The translations under genes and the position numbers were made by a program. 64,000 nt of DNA from Antedon mediterranea. Lineage: Eukaryota; Animalia; Echinodermata. Under the pieces are notes generated by a model that was given only the letters and a program-made list of their open reading frames with translations, was not told the DNA's origin and did no database searches. The stretch is from positions 31,406,912 through 31,470,911 of the forward strand of contig NC_092675.1 in NCBI RefSeq assembly GCF_964355755.1. Reading direction: 5' to 3'. Positions 706 to 58,226 of this stretch are shown piece by piece (position 1 is the first letter of the stretch; each line of letters starts with the position of its first letter).

Positions 706-23970
<23,265 letters not shown>

Positions 23971-25692
23971 CTTTCATAACCATAGTTTTGTACTATTGTA
24001 TTTTAAATAAATTTCTTATATTTCGATTTATGTAAAGCATTTAACACACTTTTATTTGATTTATATAGGCCTATTGTGTTTTTAAGTTCACCAGTGTAAC
24101 TTTATTAAAAGTACGTTCAAATCACCGTCGTTAATACGTTGTGAATGTGAAAATTTATGATAATTAATTTTTAATTCTATTATTGTGTAATAATAGCAAG
24201 GCACTTAGATTTGTTGGCACACTATATTATTAGTGATGAATTAAAACGATATATTTGAACATTATTATAAAAGTTCATAACATCCATTCCCTACAACTCA
24301 GTGAATACGTTTATTCCCTTAATGTATTCATTCATCGGAATTAATCATTGATTTGGTGTTTTACTTTAATTTTATTCCTCATATTGAGTTGTGTACCAAG
24401 ACAAACATTCGTAATGTATGCTCTAGGAAGCAATGAGATAAGGATAAATAATATTCTTATCTCAATACAGCGTGTATAATACGAATTGTATCACGCTACG
24501 CACATTATGTAAATGTATGCACAAAAACAATTCGATTATTGAGATTTAGTTTCAAGTAATACCAAGAGAAAGCTTCGTCTTAAGTTATTATCAAATTGTA
24601 CTTAAGCAGTGTTGCTTTCTAAAACGAGATGGTATACATCGATATCTAAGTTCCAGCTTATCATAATCATGGAGAAATAAATTAAAGAGACAACCGTTAA
24701 ATAAAGCCGCGTCTCATAATAGCAAGTTAAAGCCGAACTAAAAACCATTCAATAGAAATACATGCGTAAACATTATCTATACAATGCATCTACTTGAATA
24801 TTTGAATAATGAGAAGATCATTTTTATAAATTAAAATTCATTGTATGATAGCGAACTGTTTGATGCTTATTTTCATGATATAAGTTACTGTAATTATGAA
24901 TGATTGATTGGTGTTAAGTCTGTCAACACTTTGACTGTAGAGGTCGCTCGTTCAAAAAGCCTGTTGTAATAGATGTCCTATATTTTATGACACGATCGAT
25001 TTGTGGCTCGCAAAATGAAGAACAATCGGCAGATTTTAATAATTATTTAAAATATCTATGACTTTAATAGTAAAACAAACATTACTTGAAAAAAAGCCTT
25101 TTCGGTACATAAGATAGCCTGCGCTATTGTCAATTGAGCGTTCCTATTAGTATTGAACGTTTCGATCTGTAAGTAGGCCTAACTGAGATTTTAAAAAGTT
25201 TAGTTTATGATCAAGTATAATGGAATAACTTATACAACCCAGAATCTTCTGGGTAGAATTTCTTGAAAACGTGATGGATGGTTTGCTGATGAGAAGGTAT
25301 ACAGTTTGTGAATGCGATCTAACGGTAGAGAAATCCGACTCATTCAACTTCAACACTTGGCACCCGGCGAATAATAAACAAAAAAAATCACTCACACATT
25401 TTGAAAGAAAATGAACAAATAAAACACTACGTCAAAGTAATAGACTAAAGTTTATCCAAAGAGCAGAAAAGACAAGTTATAACTAAGTGTCTAAAGGATA
25501 GAATGCAGAAACGTGTATGTTTCTCTAAACGTGACAGTAGGGAAACTTTTGTAAAATATTTGTGCATTTATTAACATTCTTATATTTAATTCATGTTTTC
25601 ACTTAGTGAATATTATCTAAATGTTGTCTAATGACCTTACACTGAGGTTCTTGATGAAAACATTTTAACAGACAAAAGCTTTTTGTATCTTA

Positions 25693-27656: not shown

Positions 27657-30600
27657 TTATAATTTAGCCTTGGGTTTTGGTAGAATTTGTTGTAGTTTCA
27701 TTGCTGTCGCCATGTTCCCTGCAATTTTTAGTTTTCCAGAAAAGAATGCCTGTAATAAATAAAGCATATTAGACAAAATGATTAGTTTAAAAAAAAAGCA
27801 CAGGCAAACACAACCACACAATGTTGTCAGACAGGATTTGAACATGCGACTTCACACTGACAAGGTGAGCGTCATAACCATTAGACCACATAAGCTTCAC
27901 GATCAAATACGTGTAGGATACAATCTATCACACAGTGAGTAGTAACACTGTATTTCAATGTACTACAAAAGTAGTGTGTTCAATCTATTACACAGTGAGT
28001 AGTAACACTGTATTTCAATGTACTACAAAAGTAGTGTGTTCAATCTATTACACAGTGAGTAGTAACACTGTATTTCAATGTACTACAAAAGTAGTGTGTT
28101 CAATCTATTACACAGTGAGTAGTAACACTGTATTTCAATGTACTACAAAAGTAGTGTGTTCAATCTATCACACAGTGAGTAGTAACACTGTATTTCAATG
28201 TACTACAAAAGTAGTGTGTTCAATCTATTACACAGTGAGTAGTAACACTGTATTTCAATGTACTACAAAAGTAGTGTGTTCAATCTATCACACAGTGAGT
28301 AGTAACACTGTATTTCAATGTACTACAAAAGTAGTGTGTTCAATCTATCACACAGTGAGTAGTAACACTGTATTTCAATGTACTACAAAAGTAGTGTGTT
28401 CAATCTATTACACAGTGAGTAGTAACACTGTATTTCAATGTACTACAAAAGTAGTGTGTTCAATCTATTACGTATCAAAATAATGTACCAACATGTAACA
28501 CATGCAGTAGCATACTTAATTTGTTGCCATAATAAAGGTAATAAACTTACAGATTGTGGCTGAAGTTTACCAAGTGCAAGGTCAATCAGGTCGCCGTCTT
28601 TTACTGTAATAGTACAATCAGCTTTCTCTGAAATAATCAAAGTATGATCAATTAAAATATATTTCCAAGCAACTGTAAGATTAGTCAGTGGCCATGAGAA
28701 ACTTACCATAATCAAATATAAACAAAATGTAATGTAATTTAAAATGATTAATAATAATTTACATTGAGGGGAAAGTTTGTTTAGACTCTAGAAAGTTAAC
28801 TATCGTAGTGTGCAACTGACTATCATAGTGTGCAACTGACAATCATAGTGTGCAACTGACAATCATAGTGTGCAACTGACAATCATAGTGTGCAACTGAC
28901 AATCATAGTGTGCAACTGACAATCATAGTGTGCAACTGACAATCATAGTGTGCAACTGACAATCATAGTGTGCAACTGACAATCATAGTGTGCAACTGAC
29001 AATCATAGTAGGCAACTGACAATCATAGTAGGCAACTGACAATCATAGTGTGCAACTGACAATCATAGCGTGCACCTGACAATCATAGCGTGCACCTGAC
29101 AATCATAGCGTGCAACTGACAATCATAGCGTGCAACTGACAATCATAGCGTGCAACTGACAATCATAGCGTGCAACTGACAATCATAGCGTGCAACTGAC
29201 AATCATAGCGTGCAACTGACAATCATAGTGTGCAACTGACAATCATAGTGTGCAACTGACAATCATAGTGTGCAACTGACAATCATAGTGTGCAACTGAC
29301 AATCATAGTGTGCAACTGACAATCATAGTGTGCAACTGACAATCATAGTGTGCAACTGACAATCATAGTGTGCAACTGACAATCATAGTGTGCAACTGAC
29401 AATCATAGTGTGCAACTGACAATCATAGTGTGCAACTGACAATCATAGTGTGCAACTGACAATCATAGCGTGCAACTGACAATCATAGCGTGCAACTGAC
29501 TATCATAGCGTGCAACTGACTATCATAGCGTGCAACTGACTATCATAGCGTGCACCTGACTATCATAGCGTGCACCTGACAATCATAGCGTGCACCTGAC
29601 AATCATAGTGTGCACCTGACAATCATAGTGTGCACCTGACAATCATAGTGTGCAACTGACAATCATAGTGTGCAACTGACAATCATAGTGTGCAACTGAC
29701 AATCATAGTGTGCAACTGACAATCATAGTGTGCAACTGACAATCATAGTGTGCAACTGACAATCATAGTGTGCAACTGACTATCGTAGTGTGCAACTGAC
29801 TATCGTAGTGTGCAACTGACTATCGTAGTGTGCAACTGACTATCGTAGTGTGCAACTGACTATCGTAGTGTGCAACTGACTATCGTAGTGTGCAACTGAC
29901 AATCGTAGTGTGCAACTGACAATCGTAGTGTGCAACTGACAATCGTAGTGTGCAACTGACAATCGTAGTGTGCAACTGACAATCGTAGCGTGCAACTGAC
30001 TATCGTAGCGTGCAACTGAGTATCATAGCGTGCAACTGACTATCATAGCGTGCAACTGACTATCATAGCGTGCAACTGAGTATCATAGCGTGCAACTGAC
30101 TATCATAGCGTGCAACTGACTATCATAGCGTGCAACTGACTATCATAGCGTGCAACTGACTATCATAGCGTGCAACTGACTATCATAGCGTGCAACTGAC
30201 TATCATAGCGTGCAACTGACTATCATAGTGTGCAACTGACTATCATAGTGTGCAACTGACTATCATAGTGTGCAACTGACTATCATAGTGTGCAACTGAC
30301 TATCATAGTGTGCAACTGACAATCATAGTGTGCAACTGACAATTATAGTGTGCAACTGAATATCATAGTGTGCAACTGACTATCATAGTGTGCAACTGAC
30401 TATCATAGTGTGCAACTGACTATCATAGTGTGCAACTGACTATCATAGTGTGCAACTGACTATCATAGTGTGCAACTGACAATCATAGTAGGCAACTGAC
30501 AATCGTAGTGTGCAACTGACTATCGTAGTGTGCAACTGACTATCGTAGTGTGCAACTGACTATCGTAGTATGCAACTGAGTATCGTAGCGTGCAACTGAC

Positions 30601-33600
30601 TATCATAGTGTGCAACTGACTATCATAGTGTGCAACTGACTATCATAGTGTGCAACTGACTATCATAGTGTGCAACTGACTATCGTAGTGTGCAACTGAC
30701 TATCGTAGTGTGCAACTGACTATCACAGTGTGCAACTGACTATTACAGTGTGCAACTGACTAACATAGTGTGCAAATGATGATCCACTCTATTAAATAAT
30801 ATACTTACTTTTTGATCCATATTCCACACTTCCATTTCCATTCTTAACATCTACAATCCATTTTCCTTTCTTTCCTCCAGGCCCATCAAGTATATCAAAT
30901 GCAAACACTGACTTAACCTTGCTCACATATTTTGCACCATCCTAAATAAGTAAGTTGTATTTATGTATTTAAAATATTGTACATTAAGATTCAGTTAATG
31001 GGTTGTTGATAAAAAATGAATGGCAAAATTACTGTCTAATTTCAATGCATTATAAAATGAAAGATTAAGGATAATATTTTTCACTGAGGTACTGTACATT
31101 TGATAAATACAAAACCCCAATATATATTCACCTTTTCAAGATTTCTTTCAATTTCATCAAAGACAGCGTCACATTTGAATCCTGTTGAGGACGCAGTGTG
31201 GTACATGCGTACACCAGTACTAAAATAACAAATGAACAACTTGAATTTTTTCTACTTCTATTGACTCAATCTACCCAGGTAGTTAATACTGAATTTGGTG
31301 GGTAGGAACCAAGTAAATTATTTTTGAGAAAACATTTATTTTGTAGCAAAACTACTCTATACCTTTTATAAATAGTAATTTGAACTGCTTTGTTGTATGT
31401 TTATATATCAATAGTGTATATCCTTTATACTGCTTTGTTGTATGTTTATATATCAATGTGTATATCCTTTAATAGATTGTATGTTTATATATCAATAGTG
31501 TATATCCTTTAATAGATTGTATGTTTATATATCAATAGTGTATATCCTTTAATAGATTGTACAAATGTACATGCATAGACAAATCTGTATGTGTAGACAA
31601 ACTAGGCAAATTATCTGACAACTGAATATAAAAGTTATTTGATGCCAGCATCTACTAGCCTCAGGTTTTAGGATCTATAGATTAATTTGTACAGGGACAC
31701 AAAGCACTTTAGTTGCCTATGCTTCACTGCTTTCTGCAAGCGATAGGTGCCTAGAGAATGGACAATAATAGTTCAAGAGTGCAGGTTTTAAGCTCCTTAT
31801 TAGTATGAAAAGAAAATATTTCTTCCTGTTTAGATAAAGAGGGTATAAAAATGAAAGGAAGTGGGCCATCAAATACTTTGTACATACCACTTTTTAAGAG
31901 CATCCATACCAGCAAATCATATACTAGTGATTATTGGTGGTAGCTAGTTCAAATGTAGCTAGTTTATAAAAAAGAAGGAGATTCAACTAGCTTGTCTCCT
32001 TTGATGTATTCATTGCAGCCGCCGAATGTTTAACAGATAAGGGAGTAATTATAAACGGTATCGCACATAAGCACTGCGTGGCGTACAAGGTCAATATGTC
32101 ACGAAAAGGTCGTATAATTAATTGTAAAACCGGAAGCAAACCACTTGACCTCGAGCACATGAGCGTCGTGTGCAAGCGCGCGGCAGTGCAAAAAAGCAAC
32201 ACTGTATTCTTTTATTCAATGGAGGTTATTCTACAAAAATTGATGTGATGGAGTTTGATGAGTTGTTAACAAAAGAATTATTAGCAGAATTTGAAGAAAT
32301 AAATACCGAAGTAGGCACCGAAGAAGTGAAAAATATCTGTATATGTAACTGTCCATCGACGGAAGAGACAATAGCCTGCAACGGTAAAGATTGCGAAGTC
32401 AGATGGTTCCATACGAATTGCGTGAGTTCAGGCCTAGCCGCCGAAGAAACGTGGAAGTGCGACAAGTGTATTATTGGTTCTGAGCCTAGTGGGCCAAGCA
32501 ATTATACGAACGCTAGTAGGCCCAGCGAATCAACTACTAACAATAAACCGGAAAAAGGTAAGTATTAATGAGCGTAGATGGTATAGGCCTAGGCCTAACT
32601 AATTAATTACTCTAATAGAAAATAAGGCTATTTACTACCTAGGCCTTGGCTAGTACTACTGTACATTTTATAATTATTCATGGATTTTGCTGTTGACACA
32701 TTTTCCAAATAATTAAATTTAAAATTACCGAAATACAGGGAATAGATATTTCAGCCCTACGTCGCCCACTACATTGATTGTATTTTGCACAGGAAATTAA
32801 AATATTAGGGATAGTCGGATTGAATTTAACTTTTTAGGGGAAAAACATTTTAATTTATGATTTATTTTAAAATAATTCACAGCTGCAAAAAAGAAGCCGA
32901 TAAAATGGAAGAGCCAATATCTACTTGAAAATGCATTAGCTGATTCTTTGGAAATTGTTAATCACTCATTTAACAAAGTTCTTGAAGACCCTATGCTGCA
33001 GTTAAATCCAAAGATGGCAACAGCAATAAACAATGCAGTGGTCGAGTTGCGGTCAAAAGACATTCAGGATGTTGCAAACAAACTTGTCAATACTTTATGG
33101 GAGACAGCAACTGTAGCGAACACTAAAAGAACTGCATCAGAAGGGTTAGACGCAGTGTGTAGAAACTTTCATACTTTTCGCATAAATGAAAACTCAAATC
33201 AATTTTTAGGTTTAGTTGACTGTGATATTGCTGCAAATTTTTTATTCCAAATGGCAAGCGAGGCAATTGTAGAAGAGTTGTTGTTAAGGCAAATTGGGCC
33301 ATATGAGAATGCTGCTGCAAATGAACCGCCACAGGTAGAGGTAACCAAGGAAGAGCAACAAACATTAAGATACATGGCTGGCTATATTCCGCATAAATTA
33401 CTACGCTTTTACAGAAGATTTCCAAATAACAATCTAGCTAATTTATCTATTGATGTATTAAGGAAATTAGAAATTGAAGACAACAATGATAAAATGTCAT
33501 TTTTAGATTATAGTAAAGACTGGATTACAAAAATTAACAGAGGAGGCCTATTTAAAATAAATAATGATTCATTTTTATTTTTTAGGCGGCTAGAATGCGA

Positions 33601-36600
33601 GGTAAAACCCATTTTGTCCTCCACAAAAATTACAGAACTTTGTGGTTTAAATTTAAAGGACAAACTTACTTCAGCCCTTGACTCGCCTGTCATTAAATTA
33701 GCATGGGAACGGTTGATTGGGGATAATGTTAATGAGGTAGTAGTGTCTACTTTATTTAACAAAGTTATTGGATGTTATATAGACATCAGATGTAAGGCTT
33801 TTACCACCGTATATATGATGGAAAGAAAAAAGAAAGATGCATCAGTCGGAAAGAAGGGTGAAAAACCCTTAAGAAAGAAACTTAAAAATAATGACTTAAC
33901 TTAAAGAATTTCCAATTTATTCACAATATAAATATTTTCTATACAGTTCATTAAATACATAAAAGGTGTTCATGAAATTATTATTATATTTCTACTTTAT
34001 TATTTATGGTTTTCGTTCTTTTTGGGAATGGGGTACTGTCTATGCTAAATCCAGACTTCCTGGTGTTGGAGTGGATTGAACCAGTTACACTTCTGGCTCC
34101 TGCAACTTGTAGTGTCAATGCATTATGTTGGAATTGATGAACTGTTGGGTTTTCATTTCTTCCTCCACATCCTCTCTGTTTGCTAAAGTATTCCTCAAGA
34201 GGATCTTGGTTTAGTTTTTCACTCAACACATAGTCCACACCATCAGTAGCAAGCAATTCCTTTGTAAGTTTCACAAAAGAGTTAACTGTAGAGGAACACA
34301 ATAAACATTAATTGTAATAACATTTGCTTTAATATAGTTTTTAACAATACAATCATTAGGAATAACAGGATTTGATGACGTGCCAGGCTAGAAGACAGGG
34401 GTCGCAAGCCCTGGTTTATATTTACTTTTTAATACACTGAAAGATAAAGAACTTATTAGATTGTGCTTTTGCAACCTATGATCTATCAAACAATCTATAG
34501 CTAAACATAAATGAAAAGAAAAAAAATAACCTGTTATTCTTAGTCCGTCAAGTGTTTCACGACTTAGGCACATCCTTTTCTTTTCTGCTGCTGTTGTATT
34601 TGGTGTTTCCAAACATTGATTCTCCCATGTATTAAGAAAGCCGAGGAAATCGTCTACAAGCCACTAAAAGCCAGTAAAAATGATTTCATGAGTAACCATT
34701 GAAAGATGGGCTAGCCCATTCCATGAATAAAATATTCAATATACTACCTGAATGCAAGGATGGATTGAAAAAATGCATGTCGCATGATACCTTATCAACC
34801 AATCAAATGGCAAGGATACACTTAGGTGTATACCCCAAATTCACTGGGGTAAGTATAAATCTTGGCTGAACTTTTCAGTTAAATCATGGCGGTATAAAAA
34901 TATAACTCCATGGGTAAACCGATCTTCATGTTTGGTTGACTATAGGTGTATTAGGATAATTTATATGAAATTCTTTAATAATTTGAAAAACAAATCTGTA
35001 CCTTTAATCTTGAATCATCCACACTTCTGTATTCTAACAGGTTCTCATTTATGTTGTTTCTTCGTCTCTCAACACGACTAACATTAAGACAATCAAAAAA
35101 CTTGTTCATGTACTTTATGAAGTGGATTAGACTTTTTGTGTCATGTCTGCCTTGAATTTCCAACGCATGGGCAACACTGCTGCTAAGGATCTAAGATAAA
35201 TGGAGAATGATAAAAACTTTAAAAAATGTATTTGCCTAGACAACAAGAAAGAAGTCAATTTAAATTTACATTGGGTCTCAGATTACTAAAAACTAAACAA
35301 ACAAACTAAAATTACCTGGACAGCTAGTTTAACTTTCATCCTTAAGCTTGGCGTAAGGTATAAATGTTCGTGGCGTATTTTGTGGAGTTTTCTTAGGCCA
35401 CTACCACATCCAATATCTTCTTCTACCAAGGTGAGCAACTGATTCCACTTTAGATCTTGATGATTAAACTGCAAAAAAAAAGAGGAAAAAAAATGAAGAG
35501 CTTGCCACTGTAGCATAAAGTTGGGGGGGGGGGGGGCGGAATTGTGTTTTCACTAGTAAAAACTGGTATGAAAAAAAAATATTAAAATGTATAACTCACA
35601 TGCAAGTTTCTTGATTTTGAGTTAAATCCAGAGTTTTCGAGATTATTTCTTGTAGTCTTTAACAAGTGTGGAGTGTCGCAAATGAAATAGATATTCCTTT
35701 TCGTATATGGACTAATGGTTGAAAAGACAACTTCTGAAGAAACAGATGTTCCATGCTGTCTGTAAAATTTTCGATTTGGACTTGCACCATCACATACGAA
35801 AGCACAAACTCTGAATCCTGCATACTCTAGCCAAGTCACAGCTTTCCATATGATCCAATATAAATTGTAACTCTTGCAGCCATGAGTGGGGAAATGTGCG
35901 AATGTTTCATGTAAAGGCATAAACATGCCCCGAACCATCAGAGACAACATGTGTGATGCTTCCTTTGGTTGTTTATTTTTGTCCAAGTCCAACTCTCTTG
36001 CAAAATTGTCCATGGCTTCGTTCATTGATCCCATACTGGAGAATCCAACAAGATTACCCGATTTGCTAGAATACACAAGACCTGCGTTTATCTTCATTTC
36101 ATCAAAACTTAATGAAACAATTTTCCTAAAATTAGGTAACGCATCAAAATGTATATCATGCTTTATCCGCAGGATAACATCAGGATTAAAACCAGACTTT
36201 GCATCAGTAAAATGTGTGTAGTTCCTTAGGGTATTTTCATGTGGCAATGTCAAGTAACCAGAGTTCCTAATAATACGGTAAGCTGCAGTAGACTTCATGT
36301 GCAACGCTAAGCAAAAACGAATTATTGCTGGGTGCCAACGACGACCTGTTGCAGATGATTTATTGGCAGCCACTTGTTCATCCCATAGTAGTCTTTGTGG
36401 AGAACCTTCCTTAAATTGTTCTGACACAGTTTCTGTATGTGTTGTCATTATTGTCTTTAGAGCTTCAGACATTGTTTCTTGCAATGGACTAGAATCATCT
36501 TCAAATGACTTCCTTACTTTTTCTTTAAGGTCTTTAACCATTTTCTGTAAGTTTTTCCTGTCATTTGACACCAACATCAACTTTTTCCTTAACTGATCAT

Positions 36601-39600
36601 TGTTTAACTGATCATTTCGTGCATGAGAACTAATGTCTACTGCTTTTTGATCATTAATTCTTGACCTTTTAGACATTAACGTTGTTCTATACATTGTGCA
36701 TACTTCACAGCGATTTCCCTCAACAAATATACAGCAGTTCACGTGCCTTATTGTTCTTTCACCATTTGTGTCCTCTTCCATTGCCACTGTTGATCCAGAA
36801 ATACTATTAAACACTGCTAGGTTTGATGGTGATTGCTTGCGACAAAGTTGGATGAACTCAGTGTTTCCACAGCAAATTGCAGATTTCCATATCCATGTCA
36901 ATAAACATTCTGCATTATCTTCTGTCAGAATTTCAGGAAATTTTGCACATCTATTTGTAGAATCCTTCAACAAAACATTTACTTTCCATGAGCATGTGGC
37001 ATAAATATGCACACAAACAATAGGAAGATCATTAATTATCTTAATGAATGTGACTTTGTCGGTTCCAAGTTGTGCTACAAAGCCAAGATTCTTCCCAATT
37101 GCTAGAATTTTGTTGAGATTGATCAATGGAACAGAAAATGCACATACAGAACAATTATCATCGGAATGTTCAGCAAATGGCAAAAGATGAATTGATATTT
37201 CTTTGTCTTTTTTCTTATTGCGGAAAGTCCGCCAACGATGTAATTTCATCTTACAGCAGTTGCAGATGAAGTTGGGATGGATGCCATCTACATCTTGCAA
37301 CACATCAACTCCTAATGAAAGGTTGATATCTCTTGCATAGCACAACTTGGATTTCAATAGATTTATTTTAGAGCAGTTTTTTTTACCACATAATCTACAG
37401 AGATCCTGGAGGCAACATTTGTGCCGTTCCATTTTCTACAATTTCCTGAAATTAAATTAATTTAGAAATTATAAAAAAAATCATTGGCATTTAAAAAAAA
37501 TGTACTTATTGCTAATATTGTAAAATAAAGTTAAATTACCTGGTATTACCATTAATTATTCTGTATATTTTGGTTACCAATTCAATGTTTGCAAGACATT
37601 TATGATATTTAAATATCTTAAAATTCTTATGTAACTTGCAGTTTACCAGATTTAATTTTGGCCTATGGTAGGTTAAAAACTACTAAAATTTAACAAAAAC
37701 AAACCATATTAACCAACTAGTTGTACTGTAGTCTAGGCCTAGACTTAGTAGTGTAGAGGCCTAGCTAGCTAGTTTAGTAGTACTAGTAGCCTTACTTTAC
37801 TTTACTTAGCCTACTCTGTCTTACTAAAATGTGTTCACCATTGTATTAAAATTATAATATAAATTAGCCTATAACTATAAATTATATTAATAACAATGTT
37901 GAATAGGTTCACGAATCATAATATCAAACAAGAAGGATACTCTAGGCCTAGCCCCAGCATTATCTTCCTAACCCGTTGATTACGTCACACTTGATGAACC
38001 AACAAGCGACTCGCCGAGAAAAAAGCCCTATGTTGCAATGCATGTAGAGAAAATATACACGCGTGTACACGGTCGGGATTTTCACGGTTTGACACCTAAA
38101 TTATTAAATAATATTTACTAAAAAAAATCATTTTCCGACGTTATCGTGTTATCGATATATAATATAAAAACCATAAAATCTTAAACTTACGGTTATTTTG
38201 GTAAATATTACTCGATTTTCTTCTAATAAAATGTAATGGCTTTCTAAATTCAATATGGTTTCGGATAAGTTAAACTCTGACCCCACAAGCCCTCTCTAGA
38301 AGCAAATACAACCAAAAAAGTGTTTAAAATACATGTTCGGGGCGACTTAAATGCTAAGGGGCCTTGTAACAAGCGTATGAACGACCGGCTGCACTGACAA
38401 CGATGAAAGGCGACGTCCCGCGTGGCAGAGCGGAAGGCGGCTTTTTTGAACTCATTTAAGCGAGCCAATCAGCGTCCGAGGAAGTCAGTCATAGTTCATA
38501 TAGCACACAGCATTTTAATCTCTATTAGCTAGTTGAATCTCCTTCTTTTTTATACCTCCATGGTTCAGCAAAGGTACTGGTGGTAGGATAAGACTGATAC
38601 TAAAGGTCACAGGACTTAAGCAAACCTTTGTACATAATTGATAGGGTTTAGCAAATACAGTACATATGTCAAGGATGATGATGGATAACATACTATATAG
38701 AGGGCACTAGTAGCAGACCATGATTGTAGGAAAATTATATGGTTTACAAAATATGAGAAGCTTTTAATTTAAAGCCAAAAAGAAGATGGTGAAATATGCA
38801 TAAGACAAGATACTAACTTTTGTAATTGCTCAATTTGGTATGGCAATAATACACATATTACAGTATAATAAAAAAATGAAATCACTGAAATATTAATGCA
38901 ATATTAAATAAATGCATCGTCAGCTATGAAAACAGAGTTCAAATCATTCTTGGCATCCAAACAGTGAACTTTGTCATCAAATCAATTTAATTGCTTTAAA
39001 TAATTACCTGGTATTTGGGAAGCCAAGTTTATATAGTCCAACGACTACAGCGCCCCCAAGTCCGATATTATGCTGCAATGCTAGCTTAGCATTTGGTACT
39101 TGTCGTTTACCAGCTTCGTTCCTAAGTTGCCAACATAACTCAGAACACTGAGCAAGACCTACAAAAAAACAAATGTGCAGAACTAAATTTTACATGAGTA
39201 CTATTATTAATATAAGTCATTAGTGGGTACTACACTATCATCTTGGTCAAGCAATGTTAGTATACACACATGTACTGTAGGAAAAATTTACATTTACATC
39301 AGGGGTTAAAATTCTATAAATTAGTTGGCAGCATAAACTCTAAACCACCCGATATTGTGTGTATTATTCAGTTTAACAGAAAGGGCAGTGTAGGAATGAT
39401 TATTTTTAAATTCACTTTGTTGTTAATATATGCTAGTAGTGACTCTAATTAGCTTAGATCATAAAGTAGTTTTTTAGTTTTGTTGTGCGACAGCACAATT
39501 TATTTCAATACGGTCAAGATAAATAAAAATGATTGTCGAAAATAAAACCGTAAATAAGGTCAAACCAAAAGAAAACAATTTTTCTTGTCCTGTTAGACCT

Positions 39601-42600
39601 TATACTTGGTAAAAATACAGATAGAAACGTAAATAAGTTTATGTTGTAAAATAATAAACACATATATAGATGTGAATTTATAAGTAAAAGAGACATTCAT
39701 AAATCTTGCTAATAATGAGTGATTGCTTAAATCTATGGAAATATTTGAAAAGGACAAAACAACTCTAACTATCTGTACAATTCATCCACCATTGTCCACA
39801 AATACAAGCCAACTTAAGTACAGCTGCTTATGTTATATCCGGTATTAAAGTGTTGATGTAATACATGTCACATTACATTAAGTTTACTTCAAATAGTTGG
39901 CATCATATCAAACTATACCAAACCGTACCCCATACTAACTTTATTTATTCTATTGCTTCTAGTTGAAAACTTAACACAACCTTTTATCTTTATAAATTCT
40001 ACTTATTTTTTAATTTAATTTAAATTGTTACATGTTTATGTCTTGTCATATTGTATTTTTGTGAGAGTCCCTAATGATCAGCTTCGGCTGGATGCACCAC
40101 CCTCTTAAAATATATAAAATATCAAAATAAAACAATATAAATTAAACCAGTCATTGCAGCTACAAATAGCACATAGTAACTGAAGTTGGATTGGATCATG
40201 ATGAAGAATATCATTGCTAACAAATTAAGTATGCTTATTTAGTTCAGAAAAATCACTATGATTTCCACCAACAAAGTAACCATGGTTTCTTTTGTATAGA
40301 ACATTACATTTTCAGCACATAATAAAGTGACAAACAAGTGACAATGTGGTGCTCATCTTGGGTTTAGTTGAATCATTGAGTATGATACCATAAAGTTCAA
40401 ATTTAACTAAAGGACAATGTTATCTGTTCATCTAGTGTCTCACTGACTACGGTCTGACTTAAGTTCAAACTCACAAAACCAAAGGACATTGTGGTAGTCA
40501 TCTCCTGTGTAATTGACTTATTGAGTGTGACTTAAGCTGAAAATCAAAGGCATTTCAGTGGTTCATTGGAGCATAGAGATATTATAATATCTCTATGATT
40601 GGAGGTTCAGTTAAACAGTGTTACTTTGGGATAAAAAAAAAAAACTAATTTTGTTGTTTTGAAACTTTCGATATTGTGTGTTAATACAATATTTAACTCC
40701 TTTGTATCCACAATCTTTAAGAAGTTGATTAATTTGTGAACAAACTGTAATTAGTAGAGTTTACGTTCCTGTACCAAGTCATCAATTCAAATTGACCTAA
40801 CCTAATGGGTTGGCCGAATCAACCAAGTCTGATTCACTTCCGGATGGTAGTAAACACACAAGGCTTGGATGGCCTAAGCCACAAGTTAATTAAGAATCTT
40901 AAGTCTAGTTTCTTAATTGAAACGTCAACTATAATGTGCAAAAGGGTCAAGGACATGATAGTTAGTTTTTTTAGCTTGACATCTTCGACCCACTTTCCCT
41001 CGAGTGTACACTTATTCCGGCATTCACTTCACTTTCTTTTTGCTTCAGTCAATTCAAGCTGTTAAATAGACTTATTAGTTTATTCTTAATTTGTTAATAG
41101 ACACTTCATAATAATTCCATTAGAAATGAACCTGTATTTATGATTTGGACCTATTTGTATTTATTTACTGAGCACTATTTATGATAAAGACCTATTTGAA
41201 TGTGTCAGGATCCTTAAAAGTATATCTTTTGATGTTATTAACTGTATTTTTAAACCTGTAACATTTGAATTAAACAAATGTAAATATTTATGTAAACACT
41301 AAATAAATGCATTACATTTTAGTTACTATTGTTCATGAATATAATTTAATAACAAATATAACATCCACACAAATGCTTAGATGAAGGTTATCGGTTCCAT
41401 GACCTTTAAATCCTTCATTTTCATTGGTTAATATATAATCATAACTAAATTTATATCACAAAAATTATCCTAAAACAGTTGACAGAAAATTAACATTGGC
41501 CTACATATATCCCAGATATTTAAATTAAATCACAACTATAGTTAGTTTTTTCATGTATTTTTCATTTTAAGTTGATTTGAAGCAGAAGACAGATTTGTTA
41601 AAATGTTGGTTTGACAGCTCTGATTCACCAACTGTACAGTAAAGTATAGGGACAAAAGGGGTTATATATATAACACTGGTTTTTTAACTTATGGGTCGAC
41701 TATAAAGAGGAAAAGAAGTGGTAGGGAAGCATTGTGTCCATCCATAGTAAATAGAGTACAAACTGACCAATAATGAATTCTAACATACCTGTCGCATCAA
41801 GCGGGTGTCCTTTGGAAATAAGTCCTCACAAACTGACCAATGATAAATATTAACATACCTGTCGTACCAAGCGGGTGTCCTTTGGAAATAAGTCCTCACA
41901 AACTGACCAATGATAAATATTAACATACCTGTCGCACCAAGCGGGTGTCCTTTGGAAATAAGTCCTCACAAACTGACCAATGATAATATTAACATACCTG
42001 TCGCACCAAGCGGGTGTCCTTTGGAAATAAGTCCCCCACTTGGATTCACAACATATTTTCCACCATACGTGTTGTCTCCTCTGTCAATCATATTACCTGC
42101 TTCACCTGAAATAAATCAAGTATATAAAATATAGGAATTAGACAGATAATAAATAGTTAGAAAAGTAAAATTCATATCAGGAGTAACTTGCTTGCAAACT
42201 AGTATGATTTAAACAATGTAAAATGTATTATCCTTGTGATATATAGAAATTAGATTGTTGGAGGTAGTACAATTTATGATAGGAGTCAGAATGCCAGCAA
42301 ACTTGCTAAAATAATCTCATTAAAAATGTGTATCCAAACAATGGATGGACAAAACAGTTATGTCTAAATCTTAAGATCTGTCTACAAAGTTTATGTGACA
42401 AAAAATGTGATGCGCCCATATATGGACATGGTGGTGTCATATCACTCCCATATATGGGCTTTTTTTTGTCAAACTAGTTGTATAGACAGAGCCTAAAGTA
42501 CAGTATGTACTCTAGGATATACACCTGTGTCCATTTTATTGATGTTAAATTGTTAAAAGGTCAGTAGTTCAGTTTGATGCCTCTCAACTGGGCCAAATTG

Positions 42601-53912: not shown

Positions 53913-55308
53913 CTACGGAAGCCCGTTCGGGCCACAAGATAACTATATTTTAAAAGCTGTTATCTGGCGGCCGCCACTTAATTATCTGTGGCAATTCCAT
54001 AACCAGCTGTTATCTGGCGGCCGCCACTTAATTATCTGTGGCGGCCGCCACTTAATTATCTGGCGGCCGCCACTTAATTATCTGGCGGCCGCCACTTAAT
54101 TATCTGGCGGCCGCCACTTAATTATCTGGCGGCCGCCACTTAATTATCTGGCGGCCGCCACTTAATTATCTGGCGGCCGCCACTTAATTATCTGGCGGCC
54201 GCCACTTAATTATCTGGCGGCCGCCACTTAATAATTAGTACATGTCCCGTTCACGTGACATGTACGTGCATTGGATATGAGGCGATGTTGCATATGGAAC
54301 GCCATCGCTGCCTCCGGCAGCAAAATTTAATTCTATTCGGCTCTTTTACCATTCGGCGCATTTCTATTCGGCCCATTTACCTTTACGTTCGGCTCTTTCA
54401 GCATTCGGCTCTTTTTTATTCGGCCCATTTACCATTACGTTCGGCTCTTTTTGATTTTTTTATACGGCGCAATTAAATTCTAACCTTTTACATGGGGTCA
54501 AATGGAAGAAAATCAACGGCTGGAAATGAGTCTATGAAAAGTTTACAAAACATATAGATGCAGCATGTAGAGTGTTTGGTTGGTTGAATTAAATGAATTT
54601 GAAGGCTATTTCAATATGACTAATCATTTTATTGACATGATTAATGTGTTAGAGAACTTGCAATTGTCCCACCTTATTGACTATTTTGAAAGAGAAAAGG
54701 TTTGATTTATGGCCTAGGCTAGCTAGACCTAGTCTAGTGTCCGCCTAACTTTTAACAATAATAATTTACTCTTTCTCTCTCAAAATTTGTAAAAAGATGG
54801 ATTAATTTTAGGTTATTCAACACATCTTTAATCGTAAATATGGTAAATGGGCCGAATAGAAATGCGCCGAATGCTAAAAGAGCCGAACGTAATGGTTGTA
54901 AAAGAGCCGAATAGAATTAAAGTTTGCTGCCGGAGGCAGCGATGGCGTTCCATATGCAACATCGCCTCTGATCCAATGCACGTACATGTCACGTGAACGG
55001 GACATGTACGTATTAATTATTAAGTGGCGGCCGCCAGATAAATAAGTGGCGGCCGCCAGATAATTAAGTGGCGGCCGCCAGATAATTAAGTGGCGGCCGC
55101 CAGATAATTAAGTGGCGGCCGCCAGATAATTAAGTGTCGGCCGCCAGATAATTAAGTGTCGGCCGCCAGATAATTAAGTGGCGGCCGCCAGATAATTAAG
55201 TGGCGGCCGCCAGATAATTAAGTGGCGGCCGCCAGATAATTAAGTGGCGGCCGCCAGATAACAGCTTTTAAAATATAGTTAACTTGTGGCCCGAACGGGC
55301 TTCCGTAG
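53913..55308. mobile_element. Foldback-type element with long inverted arms containing 22-bp tandem repeats
   Basis: Ends ctacggaagcccgttcgggccacaag / cttgtggcccgaacgggcttccgtag, aata on both flanks; ~11-12 copies per arm of ggcggccgccacttaattatct; arms ~450-500 bp. Superfamily not assigned. Confidence 0.88.
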
Positions 55309-57040: not shown

Positions 57041-58226
57041 TGGTTGGTAGGATAAATGACAGATTAGATGAACATGTCCCTGTAACACAGGCCGCGTATC
57101 GCAGAGGACGAAGCACTACCGAACATGTACATACATGCAAAATGTTAGCAGAAAAGGCAATTGCGTCATCTAACTACGAAATAATATTACTACTACTTGA
57201 CATGACCAGTGCATTTGACACGGTGCGGAGGAATACTCTATTCGACATACTGACACATATTACAAGATGATGAACTACACATGTTGAAAGTTTTGATAAA
57301 CAATGTAAAATTAAGCGTTCGAATTGGAAAACAGACAGGAAAATTGTTTACTACTACACTAGGAGTACCACAAGGTGACTGTATGTCTCCGATACTGTTC
57401 ACACTATACCTAGCAAAGGCACTCGAATCAGCAAACACAACACCACTACCCCTACAACAGCTTAATATCCAGATGCAGTATGCAGATGACATTTCATTTA
57501 TTAGCGACTCAAAAGAACACATAACTAAAATAAAGAAAAATGTAACAGAGAAATTAGCAGAATTCAATCTAAAGATAATCTAAAGATAAACGAAAGTAAA
57601 ACAGAAGAATACCTAATAGGAAGAAACACCGATAGTAAATGGGAAGAATGCAAATACCTCGGTAGTAACTTGGACACAGAAAAAGACATTAAAAGAAGAA
57701 AATCACTAGCAGCTATGGCAAATAACAAGCTGAAGTCGTCGCTAGAACACAAAACGATGTCTATAGACGTGAAATCCCGTTTGTTTGACGCATACATAGC
57801 AAGTATTTCCTTATATAACAGTGAACTCTGGGTACTAAACAAAAAATTACAAGAGAGTATAGATATATATCACAGGAAAATGTTGCGAAAGATGATAGAT
57901 TTAACAGATAGAGTGTGTAACACGAAAATATACGAGATAACAAAACAAGAAGAATGGAGTAACAGAATTAAACGAAGGAGACTAAAATGGTATGGACACA
58001 TAATTAGATTACCGGATGATACCCCAATCAAACAAACAATGAAGGAAACTAACAGGAAAGTAAAACGACCCGTATGAAGACCAAGAAATAACTGGATGAA
58101 TCAAATAAAGAAAGACTTACAAGGACACAAACACAATAACAAACCATCCTGCCATAAACAGTAAAAAATGGAAACAAATTGTGGAAAGCGTAATGTCGGA
58201 AGACGGAAAACGTTAGCAACAACAAC
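57041..58226 (+). pseudogene. 5'-truncated RTE-like non-LTR retrotransposon (reverse transcriptase, frameshifted)
   Basis: RT motifs QAAYRRGRSTTEH, LLDMTSAFDTV, GVPQGDCMSPILF, YADD, KYLGS, RRRLKWYGHI; frameshifts near 57265 and 57580; (caa)n tail; ggttgg duplication, with empty site at ~55800. Confidence 0.9.

Follow-up and report, generated by a model that had tools for sequence, protein, structure and literature searches.

What does a transposon gain from a second gene, and what is the protein that it encodes? The question is raised by a 64,000-nucleotide stretch of the genome of the crinoid Antedon mediterranea (RefSeq assembly GCF_964355755.1, contig NC_092675.1, positions 31,406,912 to 31,470,911 of the forward strand; hereafter the window), in which an inverted repeat near positions 31965 and 38562 encloses two tail-to-tail genes, one for a DDE transposase and one, ORF2, for a protein with a PHD finger. 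An earlier note had described the element as a bipartite transposon that reached a RAG1/RAG2-like architecture on a P-superfamily core, and had proposed that the PHD partner reads histone marks to guide targeting. The results suggest a different role for the partner. The element is best explained as a cut-and-paste transposon of the P superfamily in which the transposase lacks its C-terminal domain (CTD) and the convergent gene encodes the predicted CTD fold, likely as a separate subunit that tunes target capture and integration. We give this reading a probability of roughly 0.7.

Both genes appear intact. Exon-by-exon translation of the minus-strand transposase (5 exons, 4 GT-AG introns, 869 amino acids) and of plus-strand ORF2 (2 exons, a GT-AG intron, 443 amino acids) revealed zero internal stops, and both models are letter-identical to RefSeq proteins of A. 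mediterranea. Two RefSeq loci, each on its own contig, have the identical transposase sequence (XP_071952173.1 and XP_071945700.1). The ORF2 accessions, XP_071952175.1 and XP_071945706.1, lie 2 or 6 numbers from those of the transposase, and the two ORF2 proteins are 99.6% identical. In sequencing run X5, which we guess to be RNA, a contig omits precisely the ORF2 intron, its shorter side covering 28 letters, and extends to 34263, antisense across the last transposase exon. No spliced transposase joint was found among the contig rows listed; splicing of this gene is supported by canonical sites, by the RefSeq model and by intronless relatives that align over the junctions. The element is real; an identical transposase at two RefSeq loci and empty sites in runs of two organisms (described below) show that it was recently active.

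The transposase has a P-type core. Pfam families PF12017, PF21787 and PF21789 were detected above cut-off and PF21788, split over two exons, below it; the domains recognized are a P-type helix-turn-helix (HTH), the N- and C-parts of the RNase H fold and the GTP-binding insertion. The sole PDB match of the full-length protein was 6p5a_A, the Drosophila P strand-transfer complex (E 1.2e-19), with an alignment that pairs Asp444, Asp548 and Glu800 with its acidic motifs; a DxxH motif occupies D586 to H589. A P-homologous DDE transposase with a GTP-binding insertion and DxxH, as expected of the P superfamily, is therefore present. Classical P and THAP9 transposases carry the CTD in the RNase H polypeptide (Drosophila residues 567–751; 10.64898/2026.08.31.747927), whereas the polypeptide encoded here stops 69 residues past Glu800. 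The Glu motif is present in 15/63 database homologues, which end 55–88 residues later, the others being mostly single-exon calls. In metagenome loci with a stop codon, 53/58 end 50–79 residues past the Glu motif and the longest extends 106 residues. The P/THAP9 CTD is absent from the window transposase and from the whole group of its relatives. Searches of viral contigs returned no relative of the transposase.

The domain missing from the transposase was recognized in ORF2. An AlphaFold model of ORF2 exon 2, built from 97 sequences, is all helical (pLDDT 89). Its best structural match is 6p5a_B, the CTD chain of Drosophila P transposase (residues 617–734), with Z 12.2 and rmsd 2.2 Å over 118/118 residues; this was the only chain above Z 8 among 48,161 chains, the next reaching Z 7.1. 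Foldseek returned 6p5a_B again (probability 0.99, E 0.22), and so did a profile search with the ORF2 family, with an alignment that covers both conserved motifs (E 0.043). PF12596 was detected in 6/97 family members (best E 0.0019). The two motifs, Y-x-A-G-Y at residue 267 and RGGL at 323, occur in 141/150 and 130/150 family members, respectively, and equal regions 1 and 2 of the published CTD consensus (10.64898/2026.08.31.747927). Because four methods, each modest alone, name precisely the domain absent from the neighbouring gene, we are highly confident in the predicted identity of ORF2 as the P-transposase CTD. A further helical domain (~115–250) had no clear match. Relatives of exon 2 form 1071 clusters (50% clustering, E ≤ 0.001), and the best 150 of the 1071 are all at most 535 amino acids long. 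Names were obtained for 16 of 19 clusters looked up, from echinoderms, a hemichordate, a lancelet, mussels and a sea anemone. Of two word-indexed protein searches with ORF2, one gave ORF2 itself only and another two proteins, and the ESM Atlas search gave no usable match.

Linkage of the two genes was surveyed in 80 metagenome loci, the best of 453 that matched the transposase, with five further loci (L081–L085) from a genome collection. An ORF2 relative was found in 26/80 metagenome loci, on the opposite strand in 26/26 and on the same strand in none, and in 25 the genes are convergent. At 90% identity, 23/71 clusters are linked to ORF2. The loci without an ORF2 relative are mostly short contigs: where at least 1.5 kb lies downstream of the transposase ORF2 is present in 18/22 loci, and where at least 2 kb does, in 14/16 (a few duplicates included). 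ORF2 homologs unlinked to the transposase, which the earlier note had regarded as a sign of chance capture, were thus not the rule in the direction from transposase to ORF2. Elsewhere the gap between the genes reaches 4.3 kb, and in L020 a LINE-like remnant (long interspersed nuclear element) lies between them (6129–6794). The linked loci are spread over all main branches of a 55-sequence transposase tree, from which ten near-duplicate loci were removed and THAP-led members were dropped by a motif filter, and transposases of linked elements share as little as 25% identity. The tree has no canonical P outgroup and so does not polarise split versus fused. Protein distances of the two genes are correlated over 15 dereplicated pairs (Mantel rho 0.42, p 0.0002), and the nearest neighbour is common to both proteins in 9/15.

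Three complete relatives (L036, L081/L082 and L084) hold both genes inside terminal inverted repeats (TIRs) of 32–50 bp that start with CATAG, between exact 7-bp target-site duplications (TSDs). The TSD of the P superfamily is 7–8 bp long. Convergent co-occurrence inside TIRs and TSDs of such length had been proposed as a check of the bipartite element, and these relatives bear it out. Most of the long loci yielded no TIR/TSD pair, and L016 has a 45-bp inverted repeat with no TSD. The L081/L082 relative (6640–12401) is present in two copies on a single contig, its insertion site being a TTAGGG run with the TSD GTTAGGG; hexamer runs similar to this site lie inside both ends of L016. An association with telomere repeats is possible. 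Loci L081–L085 bear bacterial or archaeal labels, and a prokaryotic occurrence was not accepted given the TTAGGG run at the L081 site, which likely marks animal DNA in the bins.

Are the borders of the window copy equally clear? A 28-bp inverted repeat (31965–31992 and 38527–38554, 100% match) is the top inverted pair in 28000–42000; the next-longest among the 25 pairs listed are 71–84% complementary, and the same scan found no inner TIR pair within the element. The repeat had been reported correctly, as had the two intact, spliced, convergent genes inside it with stops 79 bp apart. The right end lies at 38562, 8 bp outside the 28-bp repeat, which gives 5'-CATGG as the true terminus. The same 8 letters close short non-autonomous relatives in three different flanking contexts, and loose contig ends lie behind 38562 in one run. 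A Kolobok-like TA/TTAA target site with termini at 31965 and 38554 was rejected for the same reason, the true end being 38562. The left end lacks the outer 8 TIR letters, and in three runs the contigs at this end show 2 letters without a match ahead of 31965. Because the relatives carry a 7-bp TSD, the left end of this copy is inferred to be short by ~12 bp (8 of the TIR and 4 of the TSD) through deletion or an assembly error. No contig bridging the left junction was found among the contigs listed. A 5'-CA start, typical of P-superfamily TIRs, is found at the right end and in the three complete relatives (CAT in each), the left end being truncated; of the 7-bp TSD seen in those relatives only 3 bp are left in the window copy. 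In contigs of two runs, one from A. mediterranea and one from a second organism, 31964 is joined to 38566, an empty site; compared with it, the window copy keeps only a 3-bp direct repeat. The second organism is empty at this locus and has the element elsewhere.

Shorter and rearranged copies were observed as well. Relatives that are very short and non-autonomous match the left end (31975–32017) before closing, in three different flanking contexts, with terminal CCTCCATG-like letters; these CCTCCATG-ended relatives are a family of miniature inverted-repeat transposable elements (MITEs) of the window element. An internal-deletion derivative, seen in two runs, joins 34358/34360 to 37850; it lacks transposase exons 1–4 and leaves the ORF2 side in place. 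A joint of 32254 to 32955 in the second organism would remove the PHD exon of ORF2. A short dispersed repeat lies at 34785–34829 in transposase intron 3, with up to 40 contigs per run running off it.

Features of the two-gene element, in window coordinates
Feature	Position	Strand	Remark
Left target-site duplication, 3-bp remnant	31962..31964	+	equals 38563-38565; full TSD presumably 7 bp
Left TIR, inner 28 bp	31965..31992	+	outer 8 bp seen at right end missing here
ORF2 exon 1	32248..32557	+	acidic N-terminus and ING-type PHD finger (residues 31-74)
ORF2 exon 2	32883..33904	+	extra helical domain ~115-250, predicted P-transposase CTD ~255-421, basic C-terminal tail
Gap between convergent stop codons	33905..33983		79 bp
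Transposase exon 5	33984..34285	-	RNase H C-part including catalytic Glu800; stop codon 69 residues later, CTD lacking
Transposase exon 4	34531..34663	-	
Transposase exon 3	35002..35190	-	GTP-binding insertion domain
Transposase exon 2	35316..35468	-	GTP-binding insertion domain
Transposase exon 1 (whole), N-terminal features	35600..37432	-	RAG1-NZD/Chapa zinc domain (1-100), second Cys-containing region, coiled coil
Transposase exon 1 (whole), further features	35600..37432	-	P-type HTH, RNase H with Asp444, Asp548, DxxH 586-589
Right TIR, 36 bp	38527..38562	-	minus-strand start 5'-CATGG
Right flank, inferred 7-bp target site	38563..38569	+	TSD length taken from relatives

The N-terminus of the transposase differs from that of classical P and THAP9 proteins, in which a THAP domain leads; none was found in the window transposase. 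A profile of ten transposase N-terminal domains matched RAG1 first (21wb_A, E 4e-12; mouse RAG1 101–217, E 9e-11). Matches to zf-AD and RAG1_imp_bd were obtained for 10/10 of these domains, and to THAP for none. The zinc ligands of the mouse RAG1 N-terminal zinc domain (NZD) are H102, C110, C113, C175, C178, H206, C210 and C213 (10.64898/2026.01.24.700457), and all eight are matched in the transposase, by H4, C12, C15, C57, C60, H89, C94 and C97. The NZD motifs of PMC1131882 were also found, one with Ile for Phe. Similarity to RAG1 is restricted to residues 1–100. A model of the domain (pLDDT 82) gave as best Foldseek match the related ZAD of Pita, weakly (probability 0.47, E 1.2), with no RAG1 chain listed. 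The RAG1 matches and the eight ligands indicate that the transposase NZD probably shares true ancestry with that of RAG1, in this one domain only, a homology that the earlier note overlooked. The NZD profile matches 30/63 homologues and 10/85 loci, mostly in one tree branch, and THAP-led or THAP-tail members occur in the same CTD-less group (L033, L034, L041, L059; P0204–P0206). Judged from sequence, the N-terminal domain appears to have been swapped between THAP and NZD within the CTD-less lineage. The accessible text of two papers names only Chapaev/Transib-type elements as carriers of the NZD/Chapa domain (PMC4411706; 10.64898/2026.01.24.700457).

ORF2 also has an exchangeable finger. Its description as a PHD-finger protein holds for residues 31–74; the rest consists of the helical domain, the predicted CTD and the basic tail. 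In a PDB search the PHD exon was identified as ING-type (E 3.9e-9), and no RAG2 chain was present among its 29 matches. The methyl-lysine cage of ING PHD fingers is formed by Tyr, Met and Trp (PMC4225485). The window PHD, however, has Ile30, Thr41 and Asn45 in place of ING Tyr, Met and Asp and keeps only Trp53, so that two of the three residues of the H3K4me3-reader cage are lost; 2/8 PHDs of the family retain the aromatic-Met-Trp cage residues. By pattern, 24 ORF2 homologues of at least 400 amino acids comprise 7 with a PHD, 7 with a C2H2 finger and 10 with neither, and Pfam detected PHD in 6 and PF00096 in 6 of the 33 longest homologues. The PHD thus appears to be one of several interchangeable N-terminal fingers in the ORF2 family. 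Whether the window copy would read H3K4me3 is doubtful. Because the finger is interchangeable and two of the three cage residues are lost, the proposed histone-guided targeting is possible and weakly supported.

How might a CTD act from a separate polypeptide? In the Drosophila P structure the CTD follows a disordered flexible linker and lies, on another subunit, between the RNase H and GTP-binding domains; through a basic helix it touches both the transposon and the target DNA (PMC7776569). A domain that is hung on a linker, seated on another subunit and in contact with DNA can be supplied in trans. ORF2, with its CTD fold, is likely a distinct subunit that docks on the CTD-less transposase, and it probably tunes both the capture of targets and integration; its finger is a putative tether. 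We expect, with reasonable but not strong confidence, that ORF2 works as a subunit bound to its own transposase. Several observations weigh against this reading. Deletion of the CTD left excision and integration by Drosophila P transposase unimpaired in cell assays, and raised integration by human THAP9 by ~60% (10.64898/2026.08.31.747927); ORF2 may therefore be dispensable or inhibitory. Since CTD-less enzymes are active, modulation of target capture is a likelier role for ORF2 than an absolute need for it; the main rival is repression. The structural score of Z 12.2 is just below the caution level for helical proteins (about 13), and the sequence E-values for the CTD match are individually weak. 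The linkage loci were collected via the transposase, so the survey runs only from transposase to ORF2. Loci L011, L024, L034 and L071 have no partner despite at least 1.5 kb downstream; in L024 another transposon, with DDE_Tnp_4 and YqaJ genes, is inserted downstream of the transposase (2531–4129), and we take it to be ISL2EU-like. L083 has no partner in 1.4 kb downstream, where the open reading frame is unrelated to ORF2. In L009 (4371–8617) the partner is upstream and divergent, which may be a variant layout or a neighbouring copy. The correlation of protein distances may come partly from shared host ancestry.

Deleted Drosophila P elements that encode repressors are known, and ORF2, though derived from the CTD, could likewise be mainly a brake that binds the transposase or the ends, represses transposition and serves as a self-limiting device of the element. 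The derivative that spares the ORF2 side, the antisense course of the X5 contig through the last transposase exon and the CTD deletions in THAP9 and Drosophila P transposase are consistent with a brake. On the other hand, ORF2 is intact in cis across elements whose transposases have diverged to 25% identity, its basic tail, which faces target DNA in the P structure (PMC7776569), is retained, and the added tethering fingers suit a targeting role better; we consider a brake unlikely. Much less probable is a captured chromatin reader that functions as a RAG2 counterpart, with PHD-guided targeting to H3K4me3 as its main job. The convergent layout, the ING-type PHD with its cage kept in some of the family, and the RAG1 zinc domain of the transposase would fit this explanation, but the conserved core of ORF2 is an all-helical P CTD, most of the long homologues have no PHD, no RAG2 chain was retrieved with the PHD exon, and the TSDs of RAG-like transposons measure 5 bp and their termini read CAC (PMC7204232), as against 7 bp and CAT here. 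The claim that ORF2 is not RAG2 is upheld by the same model and CTD match, and no kelch repeat was detected among 25 Pfam families listed of 41. That a host gene was captured by chance, or that a second element is nested between the TIRs, has close to negligible probability. The upstream partner in L009 and the loci with no partner are what such an event would leave; the constant strand relation in 26/26 loci, the single TIR pair and TSD around both genes in three complete relatives, the lack of an inner TIR pair in the window element and the exact complementarity of the domains all contradict it, and linkage with complete two-gene relatives refutes it.

The element therefore belongs to a widespread split-transposase lineage of the P superfamily, in which ORF2 has a predicted subunit function. 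A broader picture is tentative and, in our view, somewhat less likely than not to hold in full: an ancient and so far undescribed P lineage of cnidarians, molluscs, echinoderms, hemichordates and lancelets would have a two-subunit transposase, composed of a catalytic chain led by the RAG1-type NZD and an integration-steering CTD subunit, expressed separately, with swappable fingers that read chromatin or DNA. It would represent an independent RAG1/RAG2-like route, a third carrier of the RAG1 NZD as well as its possible donor, and possibly the pre-fusion state of single-gene P and THAP9.

In the window the element is flanked by a thiolase C-terminal exon (PF22691; 39007–39159, minus strand) and by a short exon without Pfam match (~31170–31230, minus strand), which we take to be part of an SCPx/SCP2 gene; the element likely sits in an intron of that gene. 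A foldback-like element at 54010–55261 consists of ten 22-bp units and eleven inverted 22-bp units ~0.8 kb apart. Several minisatellites are present, for example 99 x 20 bp at 28802–30779. Segments at 1531–1926 and 23430–23992 (both minus strand) and at 57241–58074 presumably represent ZSWIM-family exons and the remnant of a LINE reverse transcriptase.

Among the papers listed by searches of the open full-text literature, none described a P element with two genes; Repbase, Dfam, subscription journals and preprint supplements lie outside that scope, and a prior Repbase annotation is possible. The CTD of P and THAP9 is called functionally uncharacterised in a 2026 preprint, and here it is a natural separate gene. 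Since it is kept beside the enzyme across very diverged elements, its role is testable by omission, titration or finger swap. For targeted gene insertion, a transposase split by nature and equipped with a modular tethering subunit would be an obvious scaffold. The NZD on a P core adds a third lineage to RAG1/RAG1L and Chapaev, the only carriers reported to date, and bears on the assembly of RAG1, and about a thousand "uncharacterized" proteins of invertebrates, an orphan family until now, gain an identity.

Classical P and THAP9 transposases use GTP-dependent cleavage with a 17-nt stagger. The window element resembles Drosophila P (PDB 6P5A/6PE2) and THAP9 in the HTH, the split RNase H with a GTP-binding insertion, the DDE positions and DxxH, the presence of the CTD fold in the element, the 5'-CA(T) termini and the short perfect TIRs. 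It differs in that the CTD has its own convergent gene, which adds a helical domain and an interchangeable zinc finger, and in that a RAG1-type zinc domain replaces THAP in the window branch. The TSD of Drosophila P is 8 bp (PMC7776569), compared with 7 bp in relatives of the window element.

Other DDE transposons, KolobokP, Kolobok0/KolX, Harbinger and ISL2EU among them, have two genes, with accessory genes beside the transposase. KolobokP shares with the window element a transposase with a downstream gene on the complementary strand (PMC9587614). In these two-gene transposons the accessory proteins are nucleases, helicases or KolX, whereas here the partner is a domain that belongs to the transposase chain in other members of the superfamily; the accessible text of PMC9587614 lists accessory genes for Kolobok only. 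Chapaev has the N-terminal two-zinc Chapa/NZD domain with all eight ligands, on a core unlike the P-superfamily core found here.

RAG1-RAG2 and the RAG-like transposons (RAGL, ProtoRAG) share with the window element two convergent genes inside TIRs, a partner that may have a PHD and a transposase that starts with an NZD. The catalytic core here is P-type and not Transib and has no RING; the window partner lacks the kelch propeller, its PHD being ING-type, whereas RAG2L has a six-bladed kelch and a PHD. RAGL CAC termini resemble recombination signal sequences (PMC7204232), unlike the CAT termini here. The bipartite convergent transposon on a P core that the earlier note recognized is supported by the Pfam and 6p5a_A matches and by the linkage of the partner across diverged elements. 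Its RAG-like architecture holds for the convergent two-gene layout inside TIRs, but the partner is predicted to be the transposase's own CTD, not a PHD reader of foreign origin that joined an already complete enzyme. The RAG likeness of the layout is convergence and ORF2 is unrelated to RAG2; only the NZD reflects homology.

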